DNA of 64,000 bases from Prorocentrum cordatum (lineage: Eukaryota), in assembly GCA_963575745.1 (NCBI GenBank), contig CAUYUJ010000281.1, positions 496,001 to 560,000 of the forward strand, in the 5' to 3' direction. The notes under the pieces were generated by a model, which saw nothing but the letters and a program-made list of their open reading frames with translations, did not search any database and was not told the origin of the DNA. Shown here piece by piece: positions 19,598 through 49,118 of the stretch. Positions within the stretch are counted from its first letter, which is position 1. Each line of letters begins with the position of its first letter. The position numbers and the translations under genes are program-made.

Positions 19598-19697
19598 NNN
19601 NNNNNNNNNNNNNNNNNNNNNNNNNNNNNNNNNNNNNNNNNNNNNNNNNNNNNNNNNNNNNNNNNNNNNNNNNNNNNNNNNNNNNNNNNNNNNNNNN
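19598..19697. other. Assembly gap (100 N)
   Basis: Run of n. It hides the 5' end (LTR/PBS/start codon) of the Gypsy-like element. Confidence 0.99.
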
Positions 19698-19698
19698 C

Positions 19699-22600
19699 TA
19701 CCTGGCGCTCATCCCTCCCGCGCACCGGGCAGAGGTGCTCAAGGATCGCCGAGTGTATCAGCGCTCTGGCGCCCAGCCCGAGGTCCGCGGCGTCGAGACC
19801 TGGAGGGAGGCCCATCGCGTGCTGCTGAAGCTGGAGGAGGCCGAGAGCTCGGCCAAGGCGCTCGTCGCGGCGGTGGGCTCGGACTTCGCGCCCAGCCCGG
19901 GCGGCGGCGGTGGCCGGCGTCGGCGCGGTGGCGGTGGCGGCGATCAGGAGCCGCCCGAGGTCGGCGCTGTTGGCAGCTCCGGCGGCGCCGGCGCTGAGGG
20001 TGCTGCGAAGGTCTGCTTCCAGATGAGGGACAGCGGCACGTGTGCGCGTGGCGACGCCTGCAGGTTCTCGCACGACCGGGCGGCTATCGCCGAGTCGCGG
20101 AGGACCAAGAAGGACGCGACCGGGCCGAAGGGCAAGGGCGCGGACGGCAAGAAGGGCAAGGGCTCGGACGACGGCGGCAAGGGCGGCCTCAAGTCGCAGC
20201 TCTGCCTGCAGTTCCTCCGGGGTGCGTGCAGCAAGAGCGAGAAGGACTGCAAGTTCAGCCACTCGGGTAAGGCAGCTCAGAAGGTCATTGCAGCGGTCTA
20301 CGCTGGCGCGGCCGCAGCTAAGGCGCCGCCGCCAAGCCTCGGCAGCGCGGGCTCCCCCGGCAGCGGCCAGGGAGCAGCGCCTGCGGCCGAGGAGGCGGCG
20401 CGGCCCGCAGCCTCTGGCGCGGCGCCGAAGGTGCAAGCTGCGGCGGGGGGCAAGCTCGAATGGGTGCGACCCTGTGGCGGCGTCTTCGGCCCGAGCTACG
20501 ACCTCCCGCAGGTGAGCGTCGTCAGGGGCTCGCCTTCGCCCGAAGGAGCTCTGAAGGACCTGGACCAGATCCCCGCCAGCGCCTGGACGCAGGTGCAGGA
20601 GCCCGACGACGGGTACCACTACTTGTGCCACACGCATGTCTACGGCCTCAGCATCAGGACGCTCCTCGATGGCGGGGCTGTGTTCTCCCTGACGTGGGAG
20701 GCGACGATCGTCAGCATCATCAACAGCGCGATCGCGGAGGGCAAGTCTCCAGAGGACCCCGACTGGCCGATCGCGGGCCTGATGCACTGGGGCCGGGACT
20801 CGAAGGCCTCGTCGGTGGCGGACAAGGGCGACCTGAAGATTCGTGGCATGGTGGACCTGCGCCTGGCCTTCGAGGGGCTGGATGGTACGCGAGTGGTGCG
20901 TGTGTTTCGCCTTCGGCTTCTGCGCGGGGGTTGGGACAGGCCGTTTCTTATCATTCTTGGGGCCCCAGCGCTCGATGCACCCCCTCTGGGGATCGGGCAC
21001 CGGCCTACGCTACAGGGCCACTACCTACCGGGGCTGGGCATCACGGTCAAGCGTGCGGAGGCCGACGCGGTGCAAGCGAAGCTGTTGACCATCTCGGCGG
21101 TGTTCTCAGAGTGCGATGCCGATAGGCGTCGAGGTGAGGATCGTCGGGCTGCCAGTGCTGTAGGATCCCTGGTGTGGTCCGGCGCGGCCTGCCCGAGCTA
21201 CCCCATCTGCATGGTCGGCGGCCAGTGCCCCGCGGAGTTCGGCGGCGGCGACGCAGGCGTGATCGTGCTCGACGACTCGGAGTCCGCCGTCCCCATCTAC
21301 CTGAGCGGCGAGGAGGGCGTGCGGCTGGAGCTCGGCGACTGCGCTCTGGTGCCAGCCCGCGCTAGCGGCTTCGCAGCGGGTATCGTCGGCGACGTGGTGG
21401 CGAATGGCGCGGCGGCCGTCTGGGCCGCCCCGGGCCCTTGGCTCGGCCGGGAGCAGCTCGTCCTGGTCGGCAACTGGGACCAGCCCGGCGTCAGCATCGA
21501 GGTCGGCGACATCGTGGGCGCCGTGATTCAGACCGACGGCGAGCCGGCCGGCGACGACCCGTCAGTGGCGCACGTGTGGCAGGATTGGGACGAGCTGCGG
21601 GACATCGTTGAGCTGGAGGTGCCGACGGACGAGTACTACGCCGAGCGTCTGGTCTACTGGCAGCGGAAGTACCCGAAGGCGGCCACCACCCTCCTCGAGC
21701 ATCTCTTGGCGGTCGAGGGCCTGCTGGACGTGTGCATCGCGGCCGGGTACTCCATGGGTGCCGAGAAGTCCCTCGAGCTGGCTCAGCGAGGCGCTCGGCG
21801 AGATCGTCCTGCGAGCGGCATCGTTATCAAGAACTGGTCGGTGCTCGAGGACGTCAGCGCTGCGGCGGTTCCTCGGCACGTTCAAGGAGGTGCTGGATCC
21901 GCGGCCACTTCCCCAAGGAGCGTGCAGAAGCCGCTGGGGATCCTCACGCAGCAGCAGCTCAAGAAGGACGCCGAGTGGCCGATGACCTCCGAGAAGGTTG
22001 CGGCCCAGCGCGCCATCCAGCAGCTCGCGTGCGAGGCCATCCGCCTCGCGGTGATCGACATGGTCGGGGCGATCTCGAAGGACCGCCCGCTCGAGCAGGT
22101 CGCGGATTTTTGCCCCTACGGTTGGGGTGGCAGCGTGTATCAGCTGGCCGCCGACCGCCGCACGCTCAACGTGCTGGCGATGTACGGCGGCTGCCTCAGC
22201 TTGGCGCAGAGCAATTGGCACCCCCGCCGGGGTGAGCTGTATGCGCAGCGCGAGACCCGGCGGGAGGCACGTAAGGATTTCGGTCGGCTGCCCGCCCTGT
22301 GCTGGACGGACCACGCGGCAGCGGTGAAGGACGCTACGGGCGAGGCCGAGACGGACTCCACCGTCATCCGCTGGGTTGGCGAGATCGAGAGCGACGGCAG
22401 CAGGCTGATGAATCTCTCGGGGCGGAGCGCGGCCCTTGGTGATGGCCCCTCCCGAGAGAACGAGGCCCACGGCAAGTTCCTGCGCGAGCAGGCTCACTCC
22501 CTGGCGAACATCACGATCGAGGACATCATCGGCGATGACTACCGCCCGGGGGAGGGGGCCCCGTGGGGCCTTGACGAGACCCCCGACGCGGCCGCCTTGC

Positions 22601-25600
22601 AGCTGGTGGCCGTGGCCGGGGCGGAGCGCGAGAAGGGCGACTCCATCGCGCTGCACCTGCCGGACTACGGATGCGAGAGGCGGCGGAGCGCAGAGCAGGC
22701 GCGGGCAGCTCGACAGCTGCAGCTGGCGGCGCCAGGCCTGCGGCTTCGCATGATCCCGCACGACCCCCCGCTGGCAGACGGTGCCGGCGGCCTGTGCTAC
22801 ATCGCGCCTCCTCGCTTCCCAGGTGATGCGAGTGGTAAGGCGCGGAAGCAGCTTCGCAATGACGTGCTGACCGCAGTGGCCGCCGTCTTGCGAGAGTGTG
22901 CCGCGCGGTGGCCCGAGGTCGTGATCGGGACGGGCCACGGCGGGCTGGCGGCGGCTGCAGCGGCCCACCCCAGAGTGGTGGAGGCCGCTCTCGCGCTGCG
23001 GTACGCGAGAGAGGCGGAGGGCATGCAGGTCGCGGAGGCGTGGGTGAACGTCAGGGCGTTCGTGGCGATCGGGCCGCGCGCCCACAGCCCGAGCAGGATC
23101 GGCTTTGTGCGAGAGGCGTTTCCGGAGTTCGGAGCGGCTGCCCACGGCGACGAGCGCCCGGCCCCCCTCTATTTGGTGGAGGGCGCCGGGGCGCACCGCC
23201 GTTTCGGGCAGGACCTCGGCGAGGCGCTGGGCGTGAAGGTGTCGGCCACGCTGGGCGAGGTCCTCATGCAGGAGGTGGTCTCTGCCCCCCCGCGGCTGCT
23301 GGAGTTCAGCGGCGGCCGCTGCGCGTGCGGGCGGAGTTCGCTGGTGCTGGCGCGGTGCGGCCAGTGCATCAGGGCCGACCGCGAGCTCGAGGAGGAGGCG
23401 CGGCTGGCTGAGGCGCCGGAGGAGGCGTTCGGGGAGCCCGACGCGGTCGACGTGGCGGCCTCGGCGGCGCGCATGCGCGCGGTCCGCCCGCAGCCGGCAG
23501 TCGCCGTCGGGCCTGGCCCCTGCGTCGCCGTGTCGGCGGAGCTCGTGCGGGACCTCCTGGAGTTTGGCGGCGGCCGAGCGGATTTCACGTGCAACTGCAT
23601 CCGGGTCCGCCGAGCGCCGGCCGCGGGCGTCGTGGCCTTGGAGGCCGCGCGGGGTTTCTCCTATCGGTTGTCGTGCTTTGTCGTGCCACAGGGGCCCGAG
23701 CCGGGCGTGGAGGTGGCGCTGGCGCAGCCGTGCGTGGAGTTCGGGCTGGAGCTCGTCACGGAGATCGACGTGGAGCTGCTGCAGGCGGGCTTGCCGAAGG
23801 GCGCCGAGCTGGTCCAGCTCTTCGCCTGCGCCTGGCTGCTGTGGGAGGGCGGCGCGCGCCTCCCCGCGCTGGGCGCTACTCACGTGCATCGGCACTGCAG
23901 GGGGTCGGCCGTCAGCAACGGTGCGATCATCAAGGTGTCCTCCTACTCCTCCGCCTACTCCGAGGTCTTCGCGGGCGCCCTGGGGCTATCATGGTACCGG
24001 GCCCTCCGCGATCGCTTCGGCGGGCGGGCATCAGGAGCCTTCGTCGAGTTCGCGGACTCCGACTTCGCGCGCGGCGAGCGGGAGGCCTTCGAGGTGCCGG
24101 ACGTCCTCGGGGCGATCACCAGCATGCGGGCGCCGGCGTCTGAGCAGGCATGCTCCGTCGGGCGCGTGGCATGCGCCCCGGAGCGCGGCACTGCAGCCTT
24201 CGACGCGGAGGTGGCGTACGGGCGCAAGCTGGAGGACGCCGACATCGCCATCAGGGAGGAGTACGCCGCGAAGGTGCGGGGCTGTGAGCCTGAGGCGGGG
24301 AGCGAGCCGTTCGAGCTGTCCAAGTCGCTTCGTGCCCACATCATCGGGGACCAGTGGAAGGACGAGGAGCTCGGGGCCGTCTGCATGCAGCTCCGCGCCG
24401 AGTCTGGCGCCGGCGACACCCCCGAGGCGCAGCGTCTCGGGGAAGACTTCGCGCTCGAGCAGTTCGTGTCGGTGGGCCCAGGGGAGCAGCGCTGGCTGCT
24501 AGTCCTCCCTGCGTCTGGCGGCCCGGGCTCGGGTATATCGTGGAGGCGCTTCATCTTCCTCCACGTTCACGCCGGTCCGTCTGGGGGTCACAAGACGGTG
24601 GTCGCCACTCGTGAGGGCGCCCGGCGGCTGGTGGTTTGGCCGGGGCTCGCGGCGGACATCGAGAAGTGGTGCGCTAGCTGCTGGGCCTGCCTCCGATTCA
24701 GGAAGCAGACTACGAAGGTGCAGGCCAGCTTCATCGTGGCACGGCACCGGCTTCCTTTTCATCATGTGGTCATCGACGTGGAGGGCCGCATCACTCCCCC
24801 CGACGTCGACGGGCACGCGTACGTGCTGACCTACATCTGCGTGACGACGGGGGCCCCCCTGCTCGAGCCGCTCAAGCACCTGCAGCACTCCGAGGTCCGG
24901 CGCGCCTTCTTTCGATGCGCGACTCGGGCCAAGACCTGGCCGATGCTGGTTAGTTCGGATCGTGGCAAGGAGTTCTGCGACGCTCTCATGGAGGAGCTCT
25001 GGGCACTCCTCAACTTCGCAGGCCGCTTCGGCACGTCGTGGAGGCCCTGCGAGCAGGCGGACGCGGAGCGGTCCCACATCGAGTGTGCGAGGGGGATCGG
25101 CATCTTCCTGCACGACGTTTTCAAGTGTGCCCCCGGCCAGTGGGCCGAGCTCCTGCCGATCGTCGAGTTCGCGTTGTGGAACTCGCCCGGCAAGTCGGCG
25201 CTGTCGCCGAGGGATCTCTGCATGGGTTGGTCGTTGGCTTCGCCGCTGGAGAGGGAGCTGCTGCCGCTGGAGCCCGCCGTTCGTGAGGCAGTCTCCGACG
25301 TCGCGGCAGCGCAGTTCGAGCAGTTCAGGCGTTTGCGGGAGGTTTATCTTCAGCATCGGGCTCGAGCCGGCCGACGCAGAGCGGAGCTGGCTAATCGCAC
25401 GAGATCGTCGAGGCGCCCGGAGGTCGGGGACATGGTATTGTTCAAGGACCCGAAGCTCTCCAAGGCCGTGGCCGGGCACGCTCCAGGCCGCCGGCCCCTA
25501 CGCGGCCCCTTCGAGGTCCTCTCCACGAAGGGCAACGTGGCCACGTTGCGGGACCCCGAGACCCAGCAGGTGCTCAAGGACATCCACGGGGATTTCTTGG

Positions 25601-26176
25601 TCGGCGTCCCGGGCTTGGTGGACGACACGGAGCGCATCGTGAAGTTGGAGGAGGACGACGGCCGTGGCAGGGCCTCTGCCGGACAGCTTCTGGCAGCGCG
25701 GCTGGCCCCTGGAGGCGGCGAGGCCGCCGAGGCGCTGGCGCCGCGCGTGAAGGCGCGGATGCGAGAGGTGAAGGTCGGGCGGCTCGTCGCCTACCAGGGC
25801 GAGGAGGCGAAGCGCTGCCGGGTGGGCAAGGTGCTGAGCCTGGCCGAGGACCTGAGCAGCGTGACGGTGCACGTGTACCAGGCGGCGGTCGACGGACGGC
25901 TGCAGGTGGTCTGGACAGCGGCGTACGACCGCCAGGAGGGCGCGGACTTCCAGCGGCAGAGAGTCGAGACGCTGGAGGCGAAGCGGGTGCTGGGTGTCGT
26001 GGAGTTCAACAAGGGCGTGCTGAACCACTCGGCGGCGAGCAGGCTGGCGCGGGCCGGCTGGCGGCTGGACGAGGGGACCGTACGGCACGGTGCCTTGGCG
26101 GCGGCGGCAGTGGCGCCGGCCGCGCCACGGCTCTCCGACCTCCCCTCGAGCCGCGTCATCGCGCTCGTCGCAGCTT
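19699..26176 (+). CDS. Polyprotein, 5' part: 2x CCCH Zn finger, aspartic protease, RT C-terminal/thumb half, RNase H, hydrolase-like/Zn region, integrase
   Basis: CCCH fingers: CFQMRDSGTCARGDACRFSH (~20014) and CLQFLRGACSKSEKDCKFSH (~20203). Protease: TLLDGGAVFS (20668). RT C-half: LLEHLLAVEGLLD..GYSMGAEK (21691). RNase H: ADFCPYGWGGSVYQL...AQSNW..GELYA...WTDHA. Integrase: HxH..GH...WPGL...CWAC, VVIDVEG, SSDRGKEF, AERSH, LRGPFEV. Confidence 0.88.
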
Positions 26177-26195
26177 CCCAGAGGAGCCTTTTCTC
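26177..26195 (+). repeat. Left TIR of DNA transposon
   Basis: cccagaggagccttttctc, preceded by TT. Confidence 0.9.
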
Positions 26196-27125
26196 GCAAA
26201 AGGCGAGAAAGCGCAAAAAGTGAGAAATTTCTTGTTTCAGCAACAAAAAATAAGAATTCTTGGTTTTTCTAGATTTGGCACAACCTAGCACAATTTTATA
26301 CATGTGATATTATATTTCGGAACACCAACACGAACAACATCAACACTTTATAAGGGGGATACACTCACAACGGAGAGCACTCATACGCATTTAGCCCGTC
26401 GGGCTGGCGGTATTTCGCGTTGTTGGAGGTATTTCGTATTTGGGCGCGTTCGATTTCTTCTCCTCCTCCTCCTCCTCCTCCTCCTCCTCCTCTCCTCCTC
26501 CTTTTTCTCCTCCTCCTCCTCCTCCTCTTCACTTCTCTTCTCTTCTCTTCTCCTCCTCCTCCTCCTCCTCCTCCTGCTCCGCCCGCCGCGGAGCCTCGTG
26601 TGGAGCGAGCTACGCCGTAGCGGCGCGGCCTCCCCGAGCGGGCCACCCGTGGCCCCGATTCGCGGCGCTGCGCAATGACGAGCCAGGCGCGCGTCCTCGT
26701 CGTTGTCGTCGTCCTCGTGTTCCTTTCCTCCACCCCTCCTCCTCCTCCTACTCCTCCTCCTCCTCCTCCCCCTCCTCCTCCTCCTCCGCCTGTTACCCGC
26801 AGGCATCGGCGGCGGCGCCCCCGCTGGGCACTGACGGCGAGCAGACCAGGATTGACACTCAGGACCGCAGGGGTCTACCATACCACCTCGCACTTGTTTG
26901 AGAGATAGGGTGGAGAGGTATCGTCGCCTCGCCGCCATCTCTCAGACGAGTGCGAGGTGGTATGGTGGACCTCTGACTCGAAGGAGTTCCTAGGCACGAC
27001 GCAGTTCGACTGGGACGAGGTGCAGGGCGTGATCCCCATCGACTCGTCGTCGGACTCGGCGGAGGAGGAGGGGGGGGACGACGACGAGGAGGACGAGGAG
27101 GAGGAGGGGGAGGAGAGGGGAGGAG

Positions 27126-27160
<35 letters not shown>

Positions 27161-27865
27161 GGAGGAGGAGGAGGGAGGAAGAGAAGGGAGGAGGGCGGAG
27201 GGAGGACGAGGAGGAACGACAAAAAAAAGCCGAGGACAGCCCTGGCGGCCGAACCGTACCTGGTAATCCAGAGGCAGCTGGGGCAGCAGAGGCAGGAGCT
27301 GAGGCAGCTGGGGGAGCAGCTGAGGAAGCTGGTCCAGCTGCTGAACCAGCGAAGGACAGCGGCTTCTGCTCTCTAGTTGCTGCTTCTGGTCCTCACCCGA
27401 TCCCTCAAACGCATCCTCATCACCCCATTCCTTTTCATATCCTCTTGATCCTCTCGATCCTCCACTTAACGCCTCCCTCTCATCCCCGATCGTCTTTATT
27501 CTTACTCCTCCCCCTTTCATCCCTCCCGCTCCTCCCCCTTCCAACTCCGCATTCCTCTCACGTCCCACTCCCTCGTTCCTTTTTTCGTCCTCCCTCCCCT
27601 CGTCCTACGGGGGGGGGCATGCAAAGAAACGCGTTGTTTCCTTTCGGGGTACCTTGGGTTTCTTGGGTTGCGATTGCTTCTCCGACGGAACCCTCGCATG
27701 CCACAAATTAGTGAACCTCTTGGGGTCTCATTGCTTTTCTTGTGGAAGGTTTCTTGTGGCCAAGCTCTTGCCAACCCACGACCCTCCTCATCCAATTCCT
27801 CCGTCCACGTCCGTGGCCATCCGTAGCCATGCTGGCTTGCAGCGCGAGTCTTGGTCGCACCCGAG

Positions 27866-29638
27866 ATGGCGCCGACGGAGCCGCTCAAGAAGGCGCTGAT
27901 CCCATATGCCACGAAAGTTTCGTTCTGCAGATACAACCACGACGGTGGCATCCAGCGGAGAAAGATCGAGAGCCAGGCGACGATGCTCATCAGCATCTCC
28001 AAGGCTCTCCCCTATTAGTCTACAGTAGAGAACTATATACGCCACGCCACCTACCCGCCACCTACCCGCCACCTACCCGCCATCTACCCGTCACCTACCC
28101 GCCACCTACCCGCCACATACCAGACACCTCCTCCTCCCCGTCCTCCCCCTCCTCCCCCTTCTCCTCCTCCTCCTACTCCTACTCCCCCTCCTCCCCCTCC
28201 TCCTCCCCCTCCTCCTCCTCCTCCCCCTCCGCTCCCGAGCAACCGGTTCCAATTCTCCTCCTCCTTCTCCGGGAGGAAGAGAGGAAAAGGGAGAAGAGGA
28301 GGAGGAGGAGGAGGAGGGTAATCGCTAGTTCCTTGCGTACAGGCTGTCCCCTCGCTGAGCATCAGCAAGAAGACGTGGGAGACCACCTTGACGCGTCTCG
28401 CGGAGTCGGCGGTTTTTTTCGACTCCCAAGTGGAACAGGACGACTGGGTCAATGAGATGACCAAGCGCTTCCGCAAGATCGTTCGCCACGTGAAGATCTA
28501 TCGGACGAAGCAGGCGGTCCAGAAGGCGCCTGCGTGGTTCACCGAGCTTGGCTTCGACCCGCCTCCGCCTGCAGTGCAAAAACGCCCTGCGGCAGCAAAG
28601 GGCGACGAGGAGGAGGAGGACTACGACGACGAGGAAGAAGAAGAAGAGTCGGACGCTGACGACGAGGAGGAAGTAGATGAGGCTGCCGATTCCCAGGCTT
28701 CGAAGGCTTCGTCGCTGCCTCCGCTGCAGTCGCCGCCGAAGGCCCCCCAAAAGATGCCCGACATTGAGCCCGACGATCATAACTACGTGTGCGGCTTCGA
28801 CCCGCAGCTTGGCGCAGCTTTTCGCTATCAAGCAGATAAAAAGCCGTCGACCCACGCTGAGTGGTGCATTGCCATGGAAGTGCCAGAGAACGCATCAGAC
28901 ACCGACCCGATGAACGCCCGCTTCCAAGATGGCTCTGCGAAAGCGATCTTCTCGATCACGGTTGGTATCTACAAGACCATGCACCCGACAGGACCCAAAG
29001 CGAAAGCAAAAGCAGGAGCTAAGGCCAGCGGCCCGCCCAAGGCGAAGCCGTCGGCTGGGCCGCCTCCCGCACCGCCGCCTGCTGGGCCGCCTCCCGCACC
29101 GCCCGAGCATGAGGCATCGACTAGCACCGAGCCTTTCGAAGGCAAGAGAGATAACATCAGGGTTTGGGTCATCGCCAGGACCGACCAGCAGCCGCAGAAG
29201 GAGGCAGACCGATTGATTTGCATAAAGTGGAGTCAGAAGCCCCCGCAGCTGATTCAGGTCAACATCAAGATCTTCGACAGCAAAGGGGGTTCAGCCGAGG
29301 CCAACGAGTCCCTCGCAATCAAGTGGTGCAACGGGGTTGCGGACCGCTTCTGCAAGGGCGAGCTTTCGAAGGACGACATCACGACGGAGAAGGCCAAGCT
29401 CCTGGCCGAATACGGCTTCACGGGCAAGAAGTTCGGCGCTCTGAAGCGGCCTGCTTCAGCGATTGCTCCGTCGCCACCAGCTCCGCCGAAGGCTTCTGAG
29501 GGCGCCGAGGCGCCGCCACCACCTCCGCCGAAAGCTACAGGGACCGAGGCGCCGAGCACGCCCCCCAGGCCCAAGACTAAGGCAAAGGCCACTCCTCACG
29601 CTCCAATTCCGCCACCGCCAAGCAGCGACGACGACTAG
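27866..29638 (+). CDS. Transposon accessory gene A, unknown function, join(27866..28003,28343..29638), ~477 aa, acidic and Pro/Lys-rich
   Basis: Exon 1 (MAPTEPLKKALIPYATKVSFCRYNHDGG...ISISK) splices in phase 0 through a GC..AG intron onto AVPSLSISKKTWETT, in frame with ORF 28388..29638. Codon usage is GC3-rich. Confidence 0.7.
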
Positions 29639-30110
29639 GCTTCGAGATCAGTGCCTGCGGAGAAAACATGTGTCGCCAATCCACCATCGCATGTGAAACA
29701 CTGGAGGCTGATTTTGAGGAGGGATAGGAGGAGGAGGAGCAGGAGGAGGAGCACGCACTTCCATTTAGCGGGGCACGCATTTTCTTGTTTATCATCATCC
29801 TGGCGTCTCCTGGTCAGCCTGGACTTGACATTGATATGAACATTCGAGTGTCCAGGCCCTCCCCCGCACGCGCACACAGATGCACACACGCGCGCACACA
29901 CACACGCACGCTCACACACACATACACACACACGCATGCGCGCACGCACACGCTCGAACACGCACGCGCACACGCACACGCAATCGCACGCGCACACACA
30001 CACACACACGCACACGCGCGCATGGACTCACCCACACACATACACAGATGCGGATGTGTGTATATAGATATGTGTATACAGATACACACACATATATATA
30101 ACTAAATTTC

Positions 30111-30333
30111 ACAACGTGATGCGTTGATTCCACACGATCTTACACTGAAAGCTCCAGAAACGAAAATCGACCATTTTGGACTGAAAATGGTCGGTTTCTC
30201 TGGCGACCGAAAACCGACCCAATTGGACTGAAATGGTTCGGTTTCTCTGGCGGCCCGTTCAGGGAACATGAAAGTCGAGGCGAGGCTGGATGAGACAACT
30301 GCCATTGCGAAAACCATCTAGCAAGCTCTGACT
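30111..30333. repeat. ~225-bp dispersed repeat, copy 1 (copy 2 at 33737..33965)
   Basis: Near-identical gttgattccac.cgatcttacact...gaaaaccatctagcaag.tctgact in both copies. Each copy is embedded in microsatellite. Confidence 0.9.
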
Positions 30334-30941
30334 GCACATATCACAGTGTATATATATATATATATATATGCAGATGTGCATGTGTATGCACAAATATAAT
30401 GATACATACACACGCGCGCGTGCAAACACGTTTACACACGCACGCGCACGCGCGCACGCGCGCACATATTATACGCTGGTGGGAGGGCGTGTGCGTGAGA
30501 GAGAGAGATTGTGTGTGTGCGTGCGTGCCCTGTTCCGCCGCTACTGGTCTCGCTTGCCCCGCCGTGCCAGGACGACTTCGCTAAAGCTCTCGAGGCGGAG
30601 CTCGACCAGCAGCAGAGCGTGACCTCCGAGACACGGAACAACATCGCGGACGCGCCTTTCCGTTTTGTTTCCGTCGTTCGGGGGGGGGGGGTGATCACGG
30701 CACCTCCCGCTCCTCCACCCCTACTGGCCCTCCTCCTCCTCCCCCTCCTCCTCCCTTTCCTCCTCCCCCTCCCCCTCCTCCGTGCTGGCCACGCCCCTCC
30801 TTATTGGTCTGATCCCTGGCCCCTGCCATCGTCCTCATTCCACTCACGTGCACCTCCTCCTTTTTTGATCAGAACGGGCAGCTTCGCAGCGATTGGGGGA
30901 TCGAGGAAGGCTGGACTTGTCGAGGAGGATCGGGCCCATAG

Positions 30942-32358: not shown

Positions 32359-33736
32359 TCCGAGGCAGCTGGTGGAGAACCTGGTGCACGAGATGCTCCT
32401 CGTGCTGATCCTGGCGCGCTGTTGCGAGCGCCCACTTTTTCTTGAGAAGCGCTCCCGAGGGAGCGCGAGGGACAGTGCAAGCATCGCTTGCGCGTCGGCT
32501 GCGTGTCTGGGGGCGGCTAGCGCAAAAACTCGGAAACGTATCCGATCCTCACTCCTCCTTGCTTAGCCCACCTGTCCCTGCCACCTCTGCCGCCTCGCCC
32601 CCACCTCCTATACCCGCCACCTACCCGCCACTTACCCGCTACATACCCGCCACCTACCCGCTCGACCCTGTCCATTATCAGTGTTTGAATGAATTTTCTT
32701 GCAACTGATCACGAATCGAACGCGAATGGACGGCAGGGAGGTGGCGGGCATGTGGCGGGTAGGTGGCGGGTAGGTCGCGGGTAGGTCACGGGTAGGTCAC
32801 GGGTAGGTCGCGGGTAGGTCGCGGGTAGGTCGCGGGTAGGTCGCGGGTAGGTCGCGGGTAGGCGGGGCTCCGGTTCGATACATCCTCACAACCTGGGGGG
32901 CCCAGGAGCCGGGTAGGTGCCGGGAAGGTGCCGGGTAGGTTCCGGGGAGGTGCCGGGTAGGTTCCGGGGAGGCGCAGAGGGCGGCTCGAAAGTGCTCAGG
33001 CGCGCTCTCCATGAGCCTCGCGCTGTGCCCTTTCCTACAATTTACTCTTCCCCTCCTTCTCATCATCTCCCTCCGCCCTTTCCTTCATCCAGTCCTGCTC
33101 CTCTTTCTCCACTCTCTCACCGCCCCCGTGCAATTCTCGTGGGGGCAGGGCCAACTCATTGCTCGAAATCTCGCTGGCCGAGGGCTGGCTGCCCACGGGG
33201 TGGGCGACAGATCAGGGGTTTGCTAATCCTTATCCCTCCCTTCCCTCCCCCTCCCACTCTCTCTCCCCCTCTTGCTCGGAAGTGGCGGGGAGACAGCTGG
33301 TGTGCGTGTGTGCTCGCGCGCGCGCGTGTGCAGCGGAGGACTCGCCACCTCTCCCGACCCTCCGACCCTCCCCTCCCGCCGCCGCCGCTGGCCCGCCGCC
33401 TCCTGATCGCCCCGTCGCCGACGCCCGTCGACGCATCCAAGTACCAGGACTCGCGAGCTTGCCCCGCCGCGCCTCTCCTCCTGCTCATCATCCTTATTAT
33501 TTTCCTGGACAGGGTACACCCCGCCGCTTCGGACCTTGGGAGGCTGTAGCAACAGCGCCAGCAGCAGCAGCAGCGGGCGCAGCAGCAGCACCAGCATCAG
33601 CAACAGCAGCAGCAGCACCAGCAGGAGCAGCAGCAAAATGTAGAAGCAGCAGGAGGAGGAGTATGAGTAGAAGTAGAAGCATGTCTACTATTACTACACG
33701 AGCATCGTTGCTACGAGCACGGGCACCAAAATGATT

Positions 33737-33965
33737 ACAACGTACACCTGAACGGGATGTGTTGATTCCACGCGATCTTACACTAAAAGCTCCGAAAACC
33801 GACCATTTTGGACTGGAAATGGTCGGTTTCTCTGGCGGCCGAAAACCGACCCAATTGGACTGAAATGGGTCGGTTTCTCTGGCGGCCCGTTCAGGGAACA
33901 TGAAAGTCGAGACGAGGCTGGATGAGACAACTGCCATTGCGAAAACCATCTAGCAAGATCTGACT
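33737..33965. repeat. ~225-bp dispersed repeat, copy 2
   Basis: Matches 30111..30333 in the same orientation. Confidence 0.9.
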
Positions 33966-35157
33966 ATAACTACAACATCCTCTATCACTACTACCACCAC
34001 TCATGCTGAACATAAAAAACTAATGATCATAACAGTATGTCTGCTGCTACTACTACTACTACTTGTCTCAACCCCCTCTGTCTTGGCTGAATCGCACGGT
34101 ATGGCAACCTCCCTTGGCTTGACTGAATCCCAAGATGTGGCAGCCCCACATTTCTTGACGGAATCGCAAGGTGTGGCAGACCCACTTGTCCTGGCTGAAT
34201 CGCAAGGTGTGGCAACCTCCCTTACAACAACAACACCACCACCACCAACAACTACTACTACTACTGCTACCACTGCCACTACCACTAATACTGCTGTCGC
34301 TGCTACTATTACTTCTACGACAATAAATACGTCTGCTACCCTACTACTAACAATAATATTACAACTGCTGCTACGTCTACTTCTACGACAGCTACTACTG
34401 CCTACCGAGTTCCTATTACCTATTCCTACTATCTCGATTATCTAGTAACCACTACATACTCCGTACTACATACTGCCTACTACATCGGACCTACTCATAT
34501 GCATCAGCACAATCTATACGTACCACCACCTACCTACTTCATACTACGCATTGTCATATACTTTGTTCGGTTATCTACTATGTACTACTTCTTCTAGTAA
34601 TATTACTACGGTGCCACTACCACTACCACTACTACTACTACTGGTACTGCTTCTGCTATTGCTACTGCTACTGCTACTGCTACCAGCAACGCAAGAAGGA
34701 GGAGCAGGCAGCGGACCAACAGGTTTGAACAAGATCGAAGGTGGCATAAGCCCATTCCTTCCTCCTATATACTGGGGGCGGCAACGATATATGTTGAGGA
34801 TGATGAGGACGATGAGGTGTATAACCACACGTCAATAAAACAAAAAAACGGTAGTGGAGCACGAGGTAGAGGAGGAGGAAGAAAAGGGTAAGAGGAGCGG
34901 CGAAGTTCCCGCTGCAGCGCTGGCCTCATTTACAAGTACTCACGATGAATACTACTCTCCTCTGTGGCATCAGTTTAAAAACCTGGGTGCCCCCATCCAG
35001 TGCAATTGCGTGATGTTCATTGCAAACAGATTCCATGTGCAAAGGGTGTTTGCGTGCCCTCATATCCTCTCACCCCTTCCCTTTCCATCATCCTGCTCAT
35101 TCCCCCCATCTCCTCATGCCCGCAGCCATTTTCGCTCGAGTGTCATTCGGCGTCTGT

Positions 35158-37519
35158 ATGGCGCCAAAGCATAAGCGGCGTCGTCGGTACGTATCCAGGT
35201 CACCCGTCAGACGGCACTCGTGGGAATCATTTGCCGACCAGGATGATGTGGATGCACGGAGACAGGCTGGTCTTAAACTGGAGGGCGTGTTGCTCACGCT
35301 GTATGCTTGTGGGAAACTTGACGCAAAAACGTTGTGTACGTTGTGTTACTGGTGTAAGGAAGCTGGATGTCGATCCGATAACATTAAGAAGTATGCAGTC
35401 GAGCCAAACCGTTCGTCTACTGGCGCGTACAAAAAGCATCTTGACACAGTGCTTCCAAAGCCAGAGAACGCCCCCGCCCTTCACGTACTGTCCGTGCCAA
35501 TGTGGATTCGGAACAGAAGGTGCACAAAACATGTATTGATTGCGCCTCCTCACGAGCTGCTCGAGGCGGAAATTGAAAACGGTGGCGTTGCACAATTTGA
35601 TGCGGGACTTCATGAATGGACCCTTGAATACCAACATCATCCACATCGTCATCGAGACAACGACGACAGGATTGTGTACCCAACCGCGTTGTATCTTGAC
35701 GGAATCAAATTCAATAGGCCTGTTGGGCCACGAGCAGAGAGCCTCATCGCGATCACCATCTACAACCTCCAGACAGGCAAGCGCCACCTGGTCGTTACTC
35801 TAGCTAAGAAGGAGCTTTGCAGATGTGGCTGCGGTAACTGGTGTTCCTTGGCGGTGATCTACGAGTACATCAGTTGGAGCCTGACCTTAGCAGCATCTGG
35901 CGAGCGTTCGCCGACTCGCTGGGACCAGAAGGCCTTTCCAGACGATTCGGTGTATGGACAACTTGCTCGGGACAAACCTCGTTTGGCGTCCAGGTTCATT
36001 CTGTGTCGGGTCAAAGGCGATTGGGAAGCCTATTGTAACCTACTGGGCTTCCCAACGTGGTCCGCGTATCACGTGCCGTGCTTGTGGTGCCCGACGAGCA
36101 AGGCCGATATGCACAGGCTCCCATGTTCAAAACACGGGTATTAATGCAGATCAATAATCATAATTCGGCAAACCCTCCTCCAATTAGGCAAAGGGTAGTG
36201 GGGATGTTAACATCCCCACTACCCTTTGCCTACAAAAATAACACAATATCAGCCGTCCTCACTCGTCTACTCCTCCTCTCGCCCTCCCCGTCCTCTCGGT
36301 TCTCCGGGTGAGAAACATTATCTTTCACCCCCGCACCATTCCTCCTCATCCCTCTCGTCCTCCTCCTCATTCCCCTCATCGTCCTCTTCCTCGTCCTCCT
36401 CCTCTTTTTCTTTGTGAGCAAACCTGCAGGTTCGGTGGCATAACTTTGTGTGGGCATTGCTGGGGGAGCCACGAGTTATCGTACGACGACGCCTGCAAAC
36501 GGTGCGAACGCACTGTGGTGATAGAGGACGAGGCAATGCGGCAGAAGATTCTGACGCAGGGCTTGTTGCATTTTGACAAAAGCAAAAAATCTAAGGGATG
36601 CCTTCTTGGGGGAGATGTGCCAAATGTGGACCCCCCCCTCAAACGGTTCGACAGACTCGAGCCCTCGAAGGACCTCGTGGACATAGCAGAGTTTTGGAGC
36701 AAGCAACTGCCCTTCACGTGCGTCTTCTGGAGGCGCAACGTTGACAATCGCAGGAGACTTCTTGACAGGGTGCATCACAGAAATCCGTTGTTTTCCGTTG
36801 GTGTCGGCGTTTCCGAAGACATCCTTCATTGCGATACATTGCACTGCCTCTACTTGGGGGTTTGTCAATTTTTCGTGCACGCTGTCATTTGGGCCTCAAT
36901 CAATTCAAACATATGGCAAATAGAAGGTGGCATGGGGGATCGCATCGAGTGGTCAGTGCGCAGGTTGTTCAATGATTACAAATGTTGGTGCAGCGATAAC
37001 GACATTCCTTTGAGCTATCAGCTTTCAGACTTGACTCCTGGCATGATATCGACTCCAGATAGGCCGACTATGAAAACCAAGGGGGCCGAAACAGGCGTCA
37101 TGGTGCGGTGGGCGACGCATTTTGCAGGCATGTTCGCCGACCAGTTTGACAACGCCCGCGAGCTGCACGCAGCTGGCGACGCCCTCGTTCAGTATCTGCA
37201 GATAATACGAGACACGCCGAGGGAAGTGCCATTCGCCACTCGGCATTATTTGCTCGACCTTTGCCTTCGGCACCTCGTGATAATGAATGACCTTGGGCTC
37301 TCTTTGCAGCCGAAATCTCACCAGTTTGTCCACTTGACCCTCGCCATCGGGGTCAAGGGCAACCCAAAATATTATTCAACGTTTCACGACGAGAGTTTGA
37401 ATTTGATTCTGGCTGGAATCGCGTCATCTTCTCACCGAGCAACCTGGGAAAAAACGATTTTTCAGCGGGTGCATCTTTTGCCCTTGGTCCAGAAGAATTC
37501 TAGCTTTGCGGCGATGTAG
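35158..37519 (+). CDS. CACTA/CMC-type DDE transposase, join(35158..36116,36430..37519), ~682 aa
   Basis: Motifs: LYLDGIKF (D), CRCGCGNWCS, VKGDW (D), CLWC, CDTLHCLYLGV, KTKGAET, PKSHQFVH, TFHDESLN (E). A phase-2 GC..AG intron at 36117..36429 joins the two ORFs (MHR|FGG). There are no internal stops. Confidence 0.85.
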
Positions 37520-38360
37520 CTGCGGCAGCTCCTGCTTCCTCCAACCCTCCTCCACGGTAATCAGACCACCCAGGCCCTCCAGCCCCTGCTCCGCATCCTC
37601 CTCCCTTTTCTCCTCTCTCCCCTCATCCCATCCTTCTTCTCCCCCTCTCACCCTCGCGCAATCGCCCCACTCCCCTCAGTTAACGCTCCCAACCCAAATC
37701 GGCGCCTGGGAGGCGCAATGGCGTCTGCACAATTGCATGACAGCGATTGCACTTGCGGTGATCTGAGCGGAAAAAAAAAACAACAAAAACATGTTGTCAC
37801 ATATGTTCTAGAATTGCCGTTGATGCTGCTTCGAGGCGCCGACCCCTCCCCCATCTGCCCGACGCCTACAGCCTACAGCTTACCCGCCACCGCCACCCAA
37901 GTCCCACGGCGATGGGCATCGTATGCTTGCCTCCGCTTTCGGATCTGGGGAGCTGCTGGATTTATAAACCCGTGCGTGTGTGGTGAGATCGGAGGAGCAA
38001 CTATTGTTACGTGATCCCGCTCATTCGTCCCGCCCGTGTCTCTATAGGCCCTTTTTGGCGCACCCCTCACGCGGTGCATATGCGGAGCTCTGCCGAAGGC
38101 CCCAGCGGCAGGAATTGGCATACCCCTCAAACGGATCGTGAGAGCCTCACCAAGCGTGTTTCGTTTGGCGCACACCTCACACGGTTCTGGCCCGACGATC
38201 GTTTGGCACACCCCTCGCACGTCAAACCCTCTCTCTCACTACTCATAGCACTGCCAGTCGCAACTGTAGCCGAGATGCCCGAGTCGAAGCGGCCACGCAT
38301 ATTGACCGAGTCATCCTTTCGCAACTACACGGATGCGGACCCTTGTGATGTGACTTCCGC

Positions 38361-38984
38361 ATGCGAGGCCAAGGCAGGCGAGGAGGAGCAGGACGAGGAG
38401 GGAGACCAAAAACTATCATCGCAGCAGAGCCTGGATTCCCTAGACAAGCTTTCTTTGAAGACGGGGGGAGCGAGGAACTGAACGAAAAGGAGGAAAGGGA
38501 ATTGGAGGAGGAACGGACGACAAAGGCGGCCGCTGCTTGGACGCCCGAGCGGGCGATGTACTGCATCGAACTTCGGAGGTTAGAGGACCCAGTTCCAAAC
38601 GGATGGGGGAGGGGGCATTCAAGGGAGGGTGGTGCCCTCCCCTTTCACCCCCCTTCCCCTTAAAAAAGGGGGTCCCCTCCCCAAGGGGAAGGGGGGGGGG
38701 AACGGGACGGGAGGGCATCGCCCTCCCTTGAATGCCCCCCCTCCCCCTTACAGGAGAAACAAAAGAAAGCAAAGCAGGATGCTGCACGAGCGCAAGAAAA
38801 AGAGCGCGTGAGGCGATCTAACGAGTTGGACAAAGTGCGAGCTTTGACTAATGTTATTATTTCTGGTGAGCCATTTCCGCCCAGAGCCCGCGCCAGACCA
38901 GTAGCTAAGGCCCGCCCTCCTAGGAGCCGATTTCCTGTGGTGAGGGGCCCACTTTTCGCTTTGAAGCGAGACGCGCCTGCTTGA
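38361..38984 (+). CDS. Possible small accessory gene C (charged coiled coil), join(<..38585,38754..38984)
   Basis: …AMYCIELRRLE splices in phase 0 through a GA..AG hairpin intron to EKQKKAKQDAARAQEKERVRRSNELDKVR…*. The start codon is unclear. Confidence 0.35.
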
Positions 38985-39566
38985 GGCGCTCGGGAAAATT
39001 GCGGCACGTCTTAGCTGTTACAGCGCTTCGCGCCTGCACGCCTGACAGACAGGCCGACGCCTATACCCGCCACCCCCCTCGACAGTTTCGCAGGTCGCAG
39101 CCGCCCCAGGACGGCGGGGCCTCAACCAGGCCCTCCCAGGAGCCCAGAAAGTGGCGACAGTTACGGCAGACACTTGCAGAATGGTGCCCCACTGGGATTA
39201 GAGCTCGCTCTCCCTGGTCCTCCTCCCCCTCCTCTCTCCTCTCCCCTTCCTCCTCCTCGGCCCCTCCTCAAGCCAACGCGATGGCTCAAGGCGCGCCTGT
39301 GGCCAGCTGCCAGCTTGGCTCTCGGATTGCGGCCGCCGTACAAATGTGGCGCCGTACAATTCAATGACACAACGTTGTGTCATTGAATTGTCGGTCTTCT
39401 CGCATGGAGCAACCGCTCGCATCGCGCAAACGGGCCGCGCGCCGCGCCCCCGACGCGGAAAACGCCGTGTGATTGATACCGCGGCAAAAGCGAGAAAACG
39501 GAAAACGATAAATTTCTTGTTTTCAACACAGAAAATGAGAATTCTTGCTTTCTCGAAAACAAACAT

Positions 39567-39585
39567 GAGAAAAAGCTCCTCTGGG
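39567..39585 (-). repeat. Right TIR of DNA transposon
   Basis: gagaaaaagctcctctggg, followed by TT. Confidence 0.9.
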
Positions 39586-39587
39586 TT

Positions 39588-42500
39588 GCCGTTCGCTCGA
39601 GGAGCTCGACCTGAAGATCGGCGAGGTCCAGGCGTGGGCGCACGGCGTTCCCCTCTTCGTGGAGATCTTCGATGGGGTCGGGAGGCTCTCGCAGGCGGTC
39701 CAGAGCTTAGGCGCCGCCAACGCGGTGTGCAGCGTGGTGGCCGGCATCGACCTCAAGCGCAGGACGTGCGGGCAGTACTGGGACCTCAGCAGGGCTAAGG
39801 ACCGTGCCCGGCTTCGCTACCTGCTCTTCGAGGTGCTGAGGCCGGCAGGAGCCCACTGGGCGCTCCCCTGTGCGAAGTGGAGCAGCCTCGGTGGCCACCA
39901 GCCCGACGCCAACGCGCACGCGCTGGCCTCCTTCACCATGGACGGCCTCGAGCACCTCGACGGCGCGGGCTGCCTGGCCTCCTTCGAAGGCCCTCGAGCG
40001 CACGCGCTGGTGGCAAGCGTGGAGTGGCAGCAGCGGTTCGGGTCAGCCGAAGCGCCGCGCGGGCGCTGGCGATACGTGCTCCCCGACGGCTGCATGTTCC
40101 ACTGCAGGAGCCCGGACGAGGAGCCCCTGGCCATGCAGAAGCCGTACGTCATCGTGGGCAACTTCCCGCTGGACTTGCTGGACGTCCAGTGCCGCCGTGG
40201 AGCGCTGCGGCCGCTAGGGCGCGGCCTCGAAGGCGTCGAGGTCGCCTCCGCGGAGCTGGGCGGCGACGCCGGGAGCTCCATGATCGGAGCCGCGCGGGCA
40301 CTGGAGGGGCCTCGCATGCCCTGCGAGCCGGGACGCGCGGCCGCTCCGGCTGCTGGGGCGACGAGGTCGGTGGACAAGCTGAGCGACGCTGAGATGGCGG
40401 AGAAGAAGGCACGGCGGGAGCCGGCGGCGGCGGCGGCGAAGAAGAAGTGGGCCGAGCTGGCCAAGAAGGGTGACTGGGACCAGGTGCGGATGCCCGGCAA
40501 GTGCTTCAGGTTTGCCGAGGTGAAGGTTTCGCCGAGGCGCTCTGCAGAGTACAAGGCCAAGGTTCTGGAGGCGGTCGGGCTCGTCGGCGAGTGCGCGGGC
40601 TACAAGCACCTGGGCAGCCAGGAGCTGGAGGCGCTGAAGGAGATGATCAGCCTGAAGGCCGAGGCGTTCTGGGTGAAGGGCACCGCGCGGACGGTCATGC
40701 GCGGCTTCAAGCACGACGTGGTGACGACCGGCTTGCCTGCGCGTGGGCCGCCGATCCGCCTTAAGGGCCCGGAGGCTTCCATCGTCCGCGAGGAGCTCGA
40801 GGCGGGCGTGGAGCAAGGGCTGTACTCCAGGGGGACCTCGCCCTGGGGCAGCTGGGCCTTTCCGACCAAGGAGCACGCGAGCGGCCGGAGGCGTCGGACC
40901 GTCGTGGACTACCGCATGGTCAACCGCAGGATGGTGATGTTCGTGTACTACATCCGCCGGTGCCGAGACGTCAAGGGCGAGCTGGTGGGCTGCGCCTTCA
41001 TCTCTGGCATGGGCGGCGCTCGCGGCTTTCACCTCCTGGTCAACACTGAGCACGCGAAGGAGGTCCTGGCTGTGCTGGCGGACTGCGGCTGCTACCTCCC
41101 CGAGGTGCTGCAGCTGGGGCCGGCGACGGGGCCCTTCGACTTCCAGTTCTGCACCGACGAGCTGTTCACTGGCACCGGCCGCGGACGCTACGGATCGGTC
41201 TGGAAGAACTACATCGACGACTTCTGGGTCAGGACGGGGCAGTGGCTGAACGGTCGCGCCTACACCGACCGAGAGTACGAGGAGATGCTGGCGGCGGCAT
41301 CCCCCCCCCCGGCTGCCTCTCGCCCACTGGGCGACTCGCTGGCAGCAGCCGGGTTCGCGGGGACCCGCAAGGCCAGCCAGAGCTACGACCACGCCAAGGG
41401 CGTGCTCGTGGGGCTGTGCGTGGCGCAGTCGGCCACGGGGGCGGCGGCTATGGAGGGCGTCGGCGTTGCCTTGGCTAACGGCCTCCGCATGCTGGCGGTG
41501 GCTGCCGCGGTGCGCACAGCGTCCTTGGTGGATGAAGGGCTGCGCGCGGGCGTGCAGCTGACGCAGGACATCTTCGAGGCGGCCGGCGACCTGGTCCAGA
41601 GCGTCTCCTGGAACCTCAGCGGGCTCATCCACGAGGTGTGCGAGGGGGCGGTCCTGGTGGTGCGCGTCCTGGTCGTCGCGCAGTGCTGCTACGCTCTCTA
41701 CTGCCTGCGCTCGTGGGTGGCTTGCCGTTCGCAGCGGGCGGCGCTGGAGCGCGCTGCCACCGCCGGCGAGGCGGCTCAGCGCGGACTCACGTCCAGCGCG
41801 CGAGCCTGCGAGGCCGGCGACGGGCCCGCCTTCGGCCGCGAGCCGATGGCCAGGGCGGCAGCCGCTGGGAGGAGCCCGAGCGGGGCCCTCTCATCAGCAG
41901 ATGGCGCCGCCAGCCCTGTGGCGGCGCTGTGGCGCGAGGCGGAGTTCGAGACGCCCCTGCTCGGAGCGGCGGCACGCCCCCGAGCGGAGGTCCCCCAGAT
42001 CCAGCGGAGCGCAGCTGTGGCGCTGCGGGACCTGGAGCACTCGGACCGCCAGCGCGCCGCGCGCGCGCGCGACCTGGCCGCTTGCGGTGCGGTGGTGTCC
42101 GCAAGGCTGGTGGAGGCTGCGCGCAGCTCAGCGGTGAAGGACGCGGGCGACCTGTGCGAGTTCGAGGTTGAGGTGGCCGGCAGCCGCGGCGTGCGGTATG
42201 ATGTGCGGCTTCGCGCTGGACGCTTGGCTGCAGCGTTGCTCCCCGCATCGTGCACTTGCGCGGACTTCGTCGGCGGCGTTGGCAGCCCCTGCAAGCGCAT
42301 CGGGGCGGCCTGGTGCTGCGCGGTGGACGGCAACTTCAGCGAGCTGGTGGAGCTGGCGCTCGCGGCTGGCCGCAAGGAGGGAGCTGCCGCTGGACCTCAG
42401 CGACGCGCAGCCCTGGCGCCGAGCGACTCCCTTGGCCTCGCGGGGGCCGTGCGGGAGCTCCGCGACTCGGAGGCCGAGGTCGTGCGCCTGCGCGAGGAGG

Positions 42501-43027
42501 TCCAGCAGCTGAAGGCGCAGCTGGGGGCGACCTCCAGGCGCGGAGCCGTGACCGAGTTCCTCTCGGCGTCGGAGACGCTGGCGGCTTGGGCGCGGGCTTG
42601 CGGTGAGGCCGAGAGCTATGTGTACGTGGCGTGCTTCGCCTTCGACCAGCCGGGCGTGGTGAACTACCTGGAGGCGGCTCGAGCTCGAGGCCTCACAGTC
42701 CGTTTGGTGTTCAGCGGCCGTGACAAGGCCTTGACCAACAACCAGGGGCCGCGCCTGCAGCGGCTCCGAGCCTGTGGGTGCGAGGTGCGCGCTCACAAGG
42801 GCTCGCGGCTGCGCGCCAAGGTGATGATGACAGAGCGCGAGATTGTGCTGGGCAGCTGCAACTTCACGACTGCCAGCTTGGGCAACGTGGAGCGCGGGGC
42901 CAGCCTGCAGGAGCTGTCCGAGGAGACGGTGCTCGAGCAGAAGGAGTGGTTCGAGCAGCTGTTCGAGGCGGCGGCGCCCTTCAAGGACGGGATCGGCGAG
43001 GTGGTGCCTCCGTCGCCGGCCCGGTGA
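39588..43027 (+). CDS. Polyprotein, 3' part: cytosine-MTase-like domain, RT N-terminal half through YIDD, hydrophobic helices, SWIM finger, coiled coil, PLD/Nuc-like nuclease
   Basis: MTase: VEIFDGVGRLS, WDL, ALPCAKWS, FEGP, DGCMF, QKPY. RT N-half: TSPWGSWAFP, VVDYRMVN, GMGGARGF, LQLGP, NYIDDF (41210..41221). SWIM: SCTCADF..PCKRI. PLD: LRAKVMMTERE..GSCNFT..SLGNVE. Confidence 0.85.
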
Positions 43028-43036
43028 GGGCGCCGC

Positions 43037-43838: not shown

Positions 43839-44470
<632 letters not shown>

Positions 44471-49087: not shown

Positions 49088-49118
<31 letters not shown>

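Follow-up and report, generated by a model that had tools for sequence, protein, structure and literature searches.

To our knowledge, the reverse transcriptases (RTs) of retroviruses, long terminal repeat (LTR) elements, long interspersed nuclear elements (LINEs), group II introns and telomerase are all single contiguous fingers-palm-thumb domains. In the Ty3/gypsy elements, this domain takes its place in a polyprotein with the defining order protease, RT, RNase H and integrase. Here we describe relatives of these elements in which that order is not kept. The copy from which the analysis started lies in a stretch of 64,000 nucleotides of the dinoflagellate Prorocentrum cordatum (contig CAUYUJ010000281.1, positions 496,001 to 560,000 of the forward strand), hereafter referred to as the window. 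It belongs to a family with a Ty3/gypsy-related polyprotein whose RT is, according to profile comparisons with solved structures, divided just after motif C, the N-terminal part being located farther downstream, past the integrase, at a distance of about 1,400 to 2,900 residues; this bears out the central claim of a first-pass annotation that had been made from the sequence alone. The architecture is real, conserved and apparently undescribed, and constitutes a variant of Ty3/gypsy-type elements. As shown by comparisons at the sequence level, its split order recurs in relatives, both pieces are under selection, and the intact giant frames that were scanned encode no other RT. We consider it probable, with room for doubt, that the copy in the window, which is dead and truncated at its 5' end, stems from a multi-copy Ty3/gypsy-related retrotransposon whose RT is encoded as two order-swapped pieces that rejoin non-covalently.

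Departures from the canonical order have been described in other systems. Passages of PMC8220671 report that in Gmr1-like gypsy elements the integrase lies upstream of the RT, as it does in copia elements, and in the family described here the integrase is likewise upstream of the catalytic core of the RT. However, only the fingers and palm are located downstream in our family, and the thumb and RNase H stay upstream of the integrase, which sets it apart from the Gmr1-like elements as these passages describe them. Birnavirus-type RNA-dependent RNA polymerases (RdRps), in the account given by passages of PMC3121795, are natural right-hand polymerases in which palm motif C is permuted. That permutation is a local one within a single compact RdRp domain, whereas in the present family the break follows RT motif C and the pieces are more than 1,000 residues apart. 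Dinoflagellate retroelements with very long frames and acquired enzymes are also known (de Mendoza et al. 2018, PMC5890265); the passages concerned deal with DIRS, LINE or Copia elements and describe RVT_1/RT domains, with no mention of a split, and a split RT is not described either in the passages seen of a 2026 DAM-retrotransposon preprint and of PMC6338049. More generally, no description of a split or order-swapped retroelement RT was found in the literature searched, which consisted mainly of titles and abstracts, with Repbase-type libraries and bioRxiv supplements outside its scope; the term 'split reverse transcriptase' refers there to an engineered Moloney murine leukaemia virus (MMLV) RT. 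Finally, Ty3 RT is described in passages of PMC5371799 as an asymmetric homodimer: polymerisation is the task of one subunit, and RNase H is provided by the other. This lineage thus already divides two activities between molecules.

Two pieces of RT could be delineated in the window, both on the forward strand, as are all the domains described below. The first of them, the C-piece (21565..22095), comprises the helix that follows motif C (LLEHLL, at 21691), motif D (G..G..K, 21745..21768), a primer-grip-like LG turn and the thumb; positions 1-326 of a hidden Markov model (HMM) of the C-half, which covers the C-piece and the RNase H, map to 21565..22515. The second, the N-piece (40379..41428, corresponding to positions 1-350 of the N-half HMM), comprises a lead-in, the fingers, the palm motifs through YIDD and a conserved tail. 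Its core (40712..41224) runs from HDVVTTG at 40712 to NYIDDF at 41207..41224 with motifs A, B and C in canonical order, and the tail contains the motifs YTDREYEE and LAAAGF. In the joined reading frame of the window, the N-piece lies 1,870 codons downstream of LLEHLL.

The identity of the two pieces was established with profiles built from relatives of the second reading frame (the best 150 of 948 matches in a representative library, at E up to 1e-3) and of the thumb region (54 matches). Profile A1, for the N-piece, contains 20 sequences, the first row being window positions 40379..41428, and profile A2, for the C-piece, contains 16. Among proteins of known structure, A1 matched the RT of cauliflower mosaic virus (CaMV; 8r0s_A, residues 149-311, E 6.4e-15) and that of Ty3 (4ol8_A, residues 114-221, E 4.4e-11), and both alignments end at YxDD plus five residues (YLDDILIFS in Ty3). 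A2 matched Ty3 RT (4ol8_A, residues 230-476, E 1.2e-14), Ty3 Gag-Pol (7q5b_A, residues 765-1011, E 3e-15) and CaMV RT (residues 316-428, E 6.7e-11), in alignments that begin at the post-YxDD helix and continue through the thumb and RNase H. The two pieces therefore cover the solved RTs without overlap, the CaMV matches abutting within five residues. In addition, an AlphaFold model of the C-piece alone retrieved CaMV RT with Foldseek (E 2.6e-8), as well as the RTs of MMLV, XMRV, foamy virus and Ty3, and VIA-align superposed model residues ~76-297 on the thumb and RNase H/connection part of such enzymes at Z 10.5-12.2, with a high root-mean-square deviation because two domains are spanned. These comparisons thus uphold the assignment of the region from 21565 on, with LLEHLL at 21691, to the portion of an RT that follows YxDD plus RNase H, and of 40379..41428 to fingers and palm ending at motif C. 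P0095, found among the weaker matches, served as a control; it is a gypsy-type protein of the ordinary kind, in which RTs are contiguous. Profiles rebuilt without it placed the N-piece at residues 1243-1407 and the C-piece at 1412-1528, abutting within four residues, and the two pieces were adjacent in all three of its repeats.

These results place the family in the Ty3/gypsy-caulimovirus lineage, to whose RTs both pieces match at E 1e-11 to 1e-15. Ty3 itself (RT 4OL8, Gag-Pol 7Q5B) is the best or second-best match of both RT pieces and of the RNase H; further likenesses are the position of the RNase H directly after the thumb, an integrase with H2C2 and DDE parts, a Gag-side zinc finger and a protease-like region. 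The differences are that the RT of the family is not contiguous, its fingers and palm following the integrase; that its zinc fingers are of the CCCH and not the CCHC type; and that its polyprotein is 3,600 to more than 7,000 residues long, with extra methyltransferase-like, SWIM, PLD-like and, in relatives, Tpt1 domains. CaMV RT (8R0S) is the best match of known structure for the N-piece (149-311) and a strong one for the C-piece (316-428), but it is a single contiguous domain, and it comes from a pararetrovirus without an integrase.

A split RT in a single genomic copy could in principle have a trivial origin, namely a misassembly, a private rearrangement or the nesting of two unrelated elements. 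The window copy itself, which carries an insertion, an assembly gap and local frameshifts, lends this explanation some colour, and we therefore looked for members of the family with a contiguous RT; none was found, and other copies share the swapped order. Firstly, both pieces are present, always C before N, in five long proteins (P0003, P0005, P0211, P0213 and P0215), of which P0005 is 36-42% and P0215 35% identical. Secondly, no thumb or C-piece follows YxDD in any of the 15 family proteins with at least 150 residues in that region, and the N-half profile detected no fingers or palm ahead of the C-piece in any of the six with at least 250 residues upstream. The latter result agrees with the first-pass annotation, according to which fingers and palm are missing between the protease-like region and the thumb, as does the fact that no RT of known structure was matched by a profile of the region between the protease-like part and the C-piece. 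Thirdly, A1 found 42 loci in metagenome contigs. Nine of them contain a C-piece, which in eight of these nine (L008, L011, L012, L016, L017, L021, L023 and L027) is located 4.2-8.8 kb upstream on the same strand. These eight include every locus, six in all, whose upstream sequence extends for at least 6.3 kb; L003, L007, L009 and L014, in which 3.9-4.9 kb of upstream sequence contains no C-piece, are too short to decide.

In five loci, a single open frame runs over both pieces (6,302 codons in L008, 6,984 in L011, 5,984 in L012, 7,003 in L016 and 4,414 in L027), and since several of these metagenome frames run off the contig sequence, the value for L016 is a lower bound. Pfam domains in L008, L011, L016 and L027 are ordered as CCCH, RT_RNaseH, Integrase_H2C2, rve, a half-length RVT_1 or none, and Tpt1 and/or PLDc_2, and these four giant frames contain no second RVT_1 or RT. 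In the window and in 13 other instances, fingers and palm follow the integrase, with a start-to-start spacing of the two pieces of 1,394 to 2,922 residues in polyproteins of 3,600 to more than 7,000 residues. The same order in five independent long proteins and eight metagenome loci, from different assemblies and at 33-99% identity, together with single open frames that span both pieces, leaves almost no probability for an artefact. The comparison supports the view that the split order is conserved across the family and is not a rearrangement or misassembly of the window copy. Some of the family proteins (P0005, P0157 and P0185) are labelled as coming from bacterial metagenome-assembled genomes (Phycisphaerae in the case of P0005, and Rhodothermales and 'bacterium' as further labels), on contigs of ~3.0-7.4 kb; most likely they represent mis-binned eukaryotic DNA.

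One locus, L005, in which the N-piece precedes a C-piece, was considered as a counter-example and rejected: its frame ends in a stop codon and is followed, after 728 bp, by a new Gag-to-integrase frame with Gag-side zinc fingers. L003, 83-90% identical, is laid out in the same way, and the distance from the frame end to the next Gag frame is 610-730 bp in both. From its sequence, we read the layout of L005 as an element boundary, resulting either from a tandem arrangement or from assembly via a shared terminal repeat. The N-to-C order that such boundaries create in assembled DNA (L003, L005) could also be taken to mean that the split exists in DNA only, the RT being made contiguous again either at the RNA level, where read-through or tandem transcripts would be spliced or back-spliced, or at the protein level by ligation. 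Dinoflagellates are known for unusual RNA processing, which would suit such a scenario. However, the frame between the pieces, in C-then-N order, is open over 1,400-2,900 codons in five loci, which points to translation as one polyprotein, and the tail of the N-piece and the head of the C-piece lack the significant similarity that alternative exons might show. We therefore regard restoration after transcription as very improbable. The comparison of tail and head also bears on the proposal of the first-pass annotation that each half carries a copy of the helix that normally follows YxDD (PTDEYY and TDREYEE), marking the breakpoint. This proposal was not supported: hhalign of the N-tail (65 sequences) against the C-head (21 sequences) gave a probability of 0.4% over seven columns, and TDREYEE and PTDEYY are each conserved in their own alignment.

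We next consider whether the polymerase is still under selection. Conservation was scored over the proteins and six-frame locus matches that cover each column, with P0095 excluded; these rows include fragments and possibly redundant sequences. The aspartate of motif A is present in 115 of 117 rows and the two aspartates of YxDD in 90 and 89 of 91. In the C-piece, the lysine of motif D (25/25) and the glycine of the primer-grip-like LG turn (29/29) are invariant, and the RNase H residues D, E, D and D are found in 44/45, 44/45, 45/45 and 40/40 rows, respectively. The ratio of non-synonymous (dN) to synonymous (dS) substitution rates between L023 and L027 is 0.08 for the C-piece and 0.12 for the N-piece; for L011 and L012, dN is 0.07 and 0.09 with dS saturated, and all other pairs are saturated. 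The pairwise amino acid identities of the two pieces correlate (r 0.97 over 21 non-independent pairs), as expected if both evolve together in one element. Both pieces are thus, as shown by these comparisons, under purifying selection, with their active-site residues intact. It might still be argued that the polymerase is defunct throughout the family, the elements being mobilised in trans by other retrotransposons and the pieces being kept for another role. The near-invariance of the three catalytic aspartates, of the motif D lysine and of the RNase H tetrad, a dN/dS of about 0.1 for both pieces and intact frames of up to 7,003 codons make this improbable.

Besides the mixed make-up of the rows, with their fragments and possible redundancy, several observations count against two pieces that rejoin. 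Pfam RVT_1 (PF00078) has no match anywhere in the window, and for the N-half of the window none was obtained even at E up to 10. In relatives, RVT_1 scores 19.5-29.6 bits, that is, at or under the gathering score of 29.6. An AlphaFold model of the C-piece alone has a mean predicted local distance difference test score (pLDDT) of 67.5, with values below 40 in the motif D/E stretch, and that of the N-piece alone has a mean pLDDT of 50.9 and as its best Foldseek row Ty3 RT at an E value of 0.18, which is not significant. The weak single-piece models could be explained equally well by shallow alignments or by incompleteness of the pieces. In 9 of the 16 proteins scanned, the RVT_1 match of relatives (19.7-29.6 bits) is limited to model positions 3-160 of 205, and a Pfam search with the frame-2 thumb fragment yielded no RT match. 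The first-pass annotation had proposed scans with RT_RNaseH, rve and RVT_1, and had anticipated partial hits to RVT_1 in reversed order; the former two were matched in the window, RT_RNaseH weakly and rve below its cut-off, but partial RVT_1 matches were obtained in relatives only.

A further point of this kind is the tail of the N-piece, which is conserved after YxDD (L/F in 65 of 70 rows, G in 66 of 69), so that the N-piece might be more self-sufficient than 'half a palm' implies. This fits a division of labour in which the N-piece polymerises alone or with an unrecognised partner, and the C-piece survives as an RNase H whose thumb acts as a nucleic-acid clamp. We regard such a division as unlikely, though it deserves to be taken seriously. 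Against it, the C-piece retains the motif D lysine and the primer-grip-like LG turn. These are elements of the polymerase active site, not of the RNase H, and their conservation in the C-piece would be sensible only beside a YxDD site. Moreover, the sequence downstream of the N-piece differs by subfamily: some have Tpt1 there, others a hydrophobic stretch together with SWIM and PLD. No conserved substitute thumb therefore adjoins the N-piece across subfamilies.

According to the reading that we prefer, in which the two pieces rejoin, the element would be translated as one giant polyprotein. The last part of the palm, with the motif D lysine and the primer-grip-like LG turn, stays together with the thumb and the RNase H in its canonical position behind the protease-like region; the fingers and the palm up to YxDD follow 1,400 to 2,900 residues further on, past the integrase and a methyltransferase-like region. 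We infer that the two pieces associate non-covalently and so restore an active polymerase, to which the C-piece would contribute the final strands of the palm and the thumb, and the N-piece the active site. The partners might belong to the same uncleaved polyprotein or to two polyprotein molecules, or they might meet after cleavage. As to the origin of the arrangement, it is plausible that the RT region was duplicated and each copy then lost a complementary part, or that the fingers and palm moved to a Gmr1-like position after the integrase.

In the window, the polyprotein is interrupted by a nested insertion. Two stretches with a G+C content of 0.70 and 0.71 flank a 13.4-kb middle part with a content of 0.57. 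The first open reading frame (ORF) spans 18901..26223, of which only the portion from 19699 on belongs to the element, directly after an assembly gap of 100 N (19598..19697); the second ORF spans 39569..43027. The 13.4-kb insertion (26177..39585, no strand assigned) has 19-nt terminal inverted repeats that match at 18 of 19 positions, and is flanked by a TT duplication (26175-76 and 39586-87). The first-pass annotation had proposed that removal of the insertion and of one TT yields a single frame, and this is indeed the case: 19699..26176 joined to 39588..43027 gives 9,918 nt, that is, 3,305 codons plus a stop, with no internal stop. In tblastn searches, the independent P. cordatum proteins P0003 (3,612 residues), P0211 (3,963 residues, representing a cluster of 10 sequences), P0212 and P0213 (3,845 residues), which are 88-99% identical to the window translation, cross the join without a break, which argues against a coincidence of frames. 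The first part of the polyprotein (19699..26176) corresponds to residues 503/509 onward of intact copies, as judged from tblastn of P0003 and P0211, its 5' end being lost in the gap; the second part (39588..43027) ends with the stop codon at 43025..43027. No Pfam family reached its curated cut-off in eight ORFs of the insertion, the only match being a weak one below the cut-off to MRP-S25 (E 0.0059, 16.7 bits against a cut-off of 25). The insertion also contains ~75-nt subterminal direct repeats, a 221-bp direct repeat pair (30113..30333 and 33751..33965, 92.8% identical) and an inverted pair (28045..28164 and 32737..32856).

The window copy is dead. About 500 Gag-side residues are missing from its 5' end at the gap. 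In the window copy only, the thumb is disrupted by four or more frame changes and a deletion, clustered at 21775..21925, and the motifs ALGEIV, IKNW, LRRFLGTF and WIRGHFP are spread there over three reading frames. The first-pass annotation, which had listed these motifs as belonging to the post-YxDD part of the RT, had thus read across frameshifts; the motifs themselves stand, as they are contiguous in P0003, P0004, P0211 and P0213. At motif A (41012..41014), the window encodes glycine, a state found in one of the 117 rows; family rows have the catalytic aspartate at the frequency given above, as do the close relatives L001, P0211, P0212 and P0213. The histidine of the PLD-like motif is also replaced by arginine in the window (RLRAKV, compared to RLHAKV in P0003).

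No long direct repeats flanking the element were found within the window, where the 5' end of the element is missing because of the N gap. Three bases past the stop codon begins a tandem repeat with units of 54/100 bp (43030..43394 and beyond), and the alignments of P0211 and P0212 run past the stop of the window and enter it, reaching 43345 and, in another frame, 43664, which points to a longer C-terminus in some copies. Long AGT and GAG microsatellites are located at 43840..44470 and 48972..49545, with an inverted copy ~5 kb apart that is 93% identical over 456 nt. Other tandem arrays in the window consist of a 7-bp unit (17101..18429) and of ~377-bp units (47264..48358 and 62161..63196).

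The remaining domains of the polyprotein are, in order, as follows. Two CCCH zinc fingers on the Gag side (20011..20265; Pfam zf-CCCH, residues 71-95 and 130-155, counted in the protein that starts at 19801) probably bind nucleic acid. The protease-like region (20662..20976) was read from the motifs LLDGGA and LIILGAPALD. The first motif is DTGA or DGGS in relatives (DTGA in L023 and L027); no Pfam match was obtained, and the best match of a family profile to known structures was a retroviral-like aspartic protease at an E value of 0.92, so that a protease is suggested by the D[TG]G[AS] and LG..LD motifs only. The region between this part and the C-piece looks beta-rich, and a zinc ribbon follows in metagenome relatives. 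A dUTPase-like barrel was suspected there and rejected, as the structure-based profile search returned only a dUTPase at an E value of 0.09 and zinc ribbons, none of them significant. In the RNase H (22096..22515), the acidic residues are D at VADF, E at RRGELYAQ, D at WTDH and D at LGDGPSR. The Pfam RT_RNaseH match, weak in the window, reaches 6.7e-9 in P0006; in the profile alignment the domain is aligned to the RNase H of Ty3, and the Ty3 residues named in the passages of PMC5371799 line up with the acidic residues of the family. The ~670 residues between RNase H and integrase (22520..24540), which were assigned to no family, are also kept in P0005; a Cys-rich CxCG...CGQC stretch lies among them.

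The integrase (24544..25053) consists of an H2C2 zinc-binding domain (Integrase_H2C2, PF17921, E 8.9e-11) and a DDE core (rve, PF00665, E 1e-4); the rve match is below the curated cut-off in the window, and with L005 and P0152 its score is 34.7-38.7 bits. Between the integrase and the N-piece, the motifs EIFDGVG and LPCAKWS (39659..39883), which are FxGxG-like and PC-like, were read from the sequence. The stretch is kept in P0005 at ~40% identity, and it had neither a Pfam match nor, with phmmer, a match to a protein of known structure; it is putatively methyltransferase-like by its motif strings only. Downstream of the N-piece, the polyprotein ends in a SWIM-type zinc finger and a PLD-like domain, both here and in relatives (L008, L027 and P0030). 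The former (approximately 42200..42310) was mapped from residues 3337-3374 of P0003, Pfam SWIM being matched only in relatives (P0003, E 0.0011, 18.9 bits against a cut-off of 19.6; P0030, E 4.7e-5, 23.2 bits). The latter, a PLD-like nuclease/phosphodiesterase (42602..42961; PLDc_2, E 1.3e-10), means that a PLD-type nuclease coexists with an integrase in the same retrotransposon polyprotein. In one subfamily, the N-piece is followed by a Tpt1/KptA RNA 2'-phosphotransferase (PF01885, E down to 7.5e-27), carried by L008, L011 and L016 and by the proteins P0015, P0016, P0021, P0025 and P0040. The frames of these three loci (L016:2-21010, L011:2-20953 and L008:2-18907; 6,302 to at least 7,003 codons, G+C content 0.54) run off both ends of the contig sequence in two cases, which implies elements that exceed 21 kb of continuous coding sequence.

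What, then, would this family mean? We incline, by a little, to the view that it represents the first natural RT that works as two separately encoded, order-swapped and non-covalently assembling pieces, and that the arrangement is both ancestral and selected in a family of giant retrotransposons widespread among dinoflagellates and other marine protists. The RT fold would then tolerate a natural split at a defined point, and the family would offer a natural template for two-piece RTs such as those engineered for genome editing. Whether polymerase activity is reconstituted by the two pieces is a directly testable biochemical question. For the annotation of genomes, it follows that domain-based searches for transposons may miss or misclassify such elements, because RVT_1 fails or is matched over half its length. 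Finally, the family adds one more case to the view that dinoflagellate genomes serve as a reservoir for giant retroelements laden with cargo.

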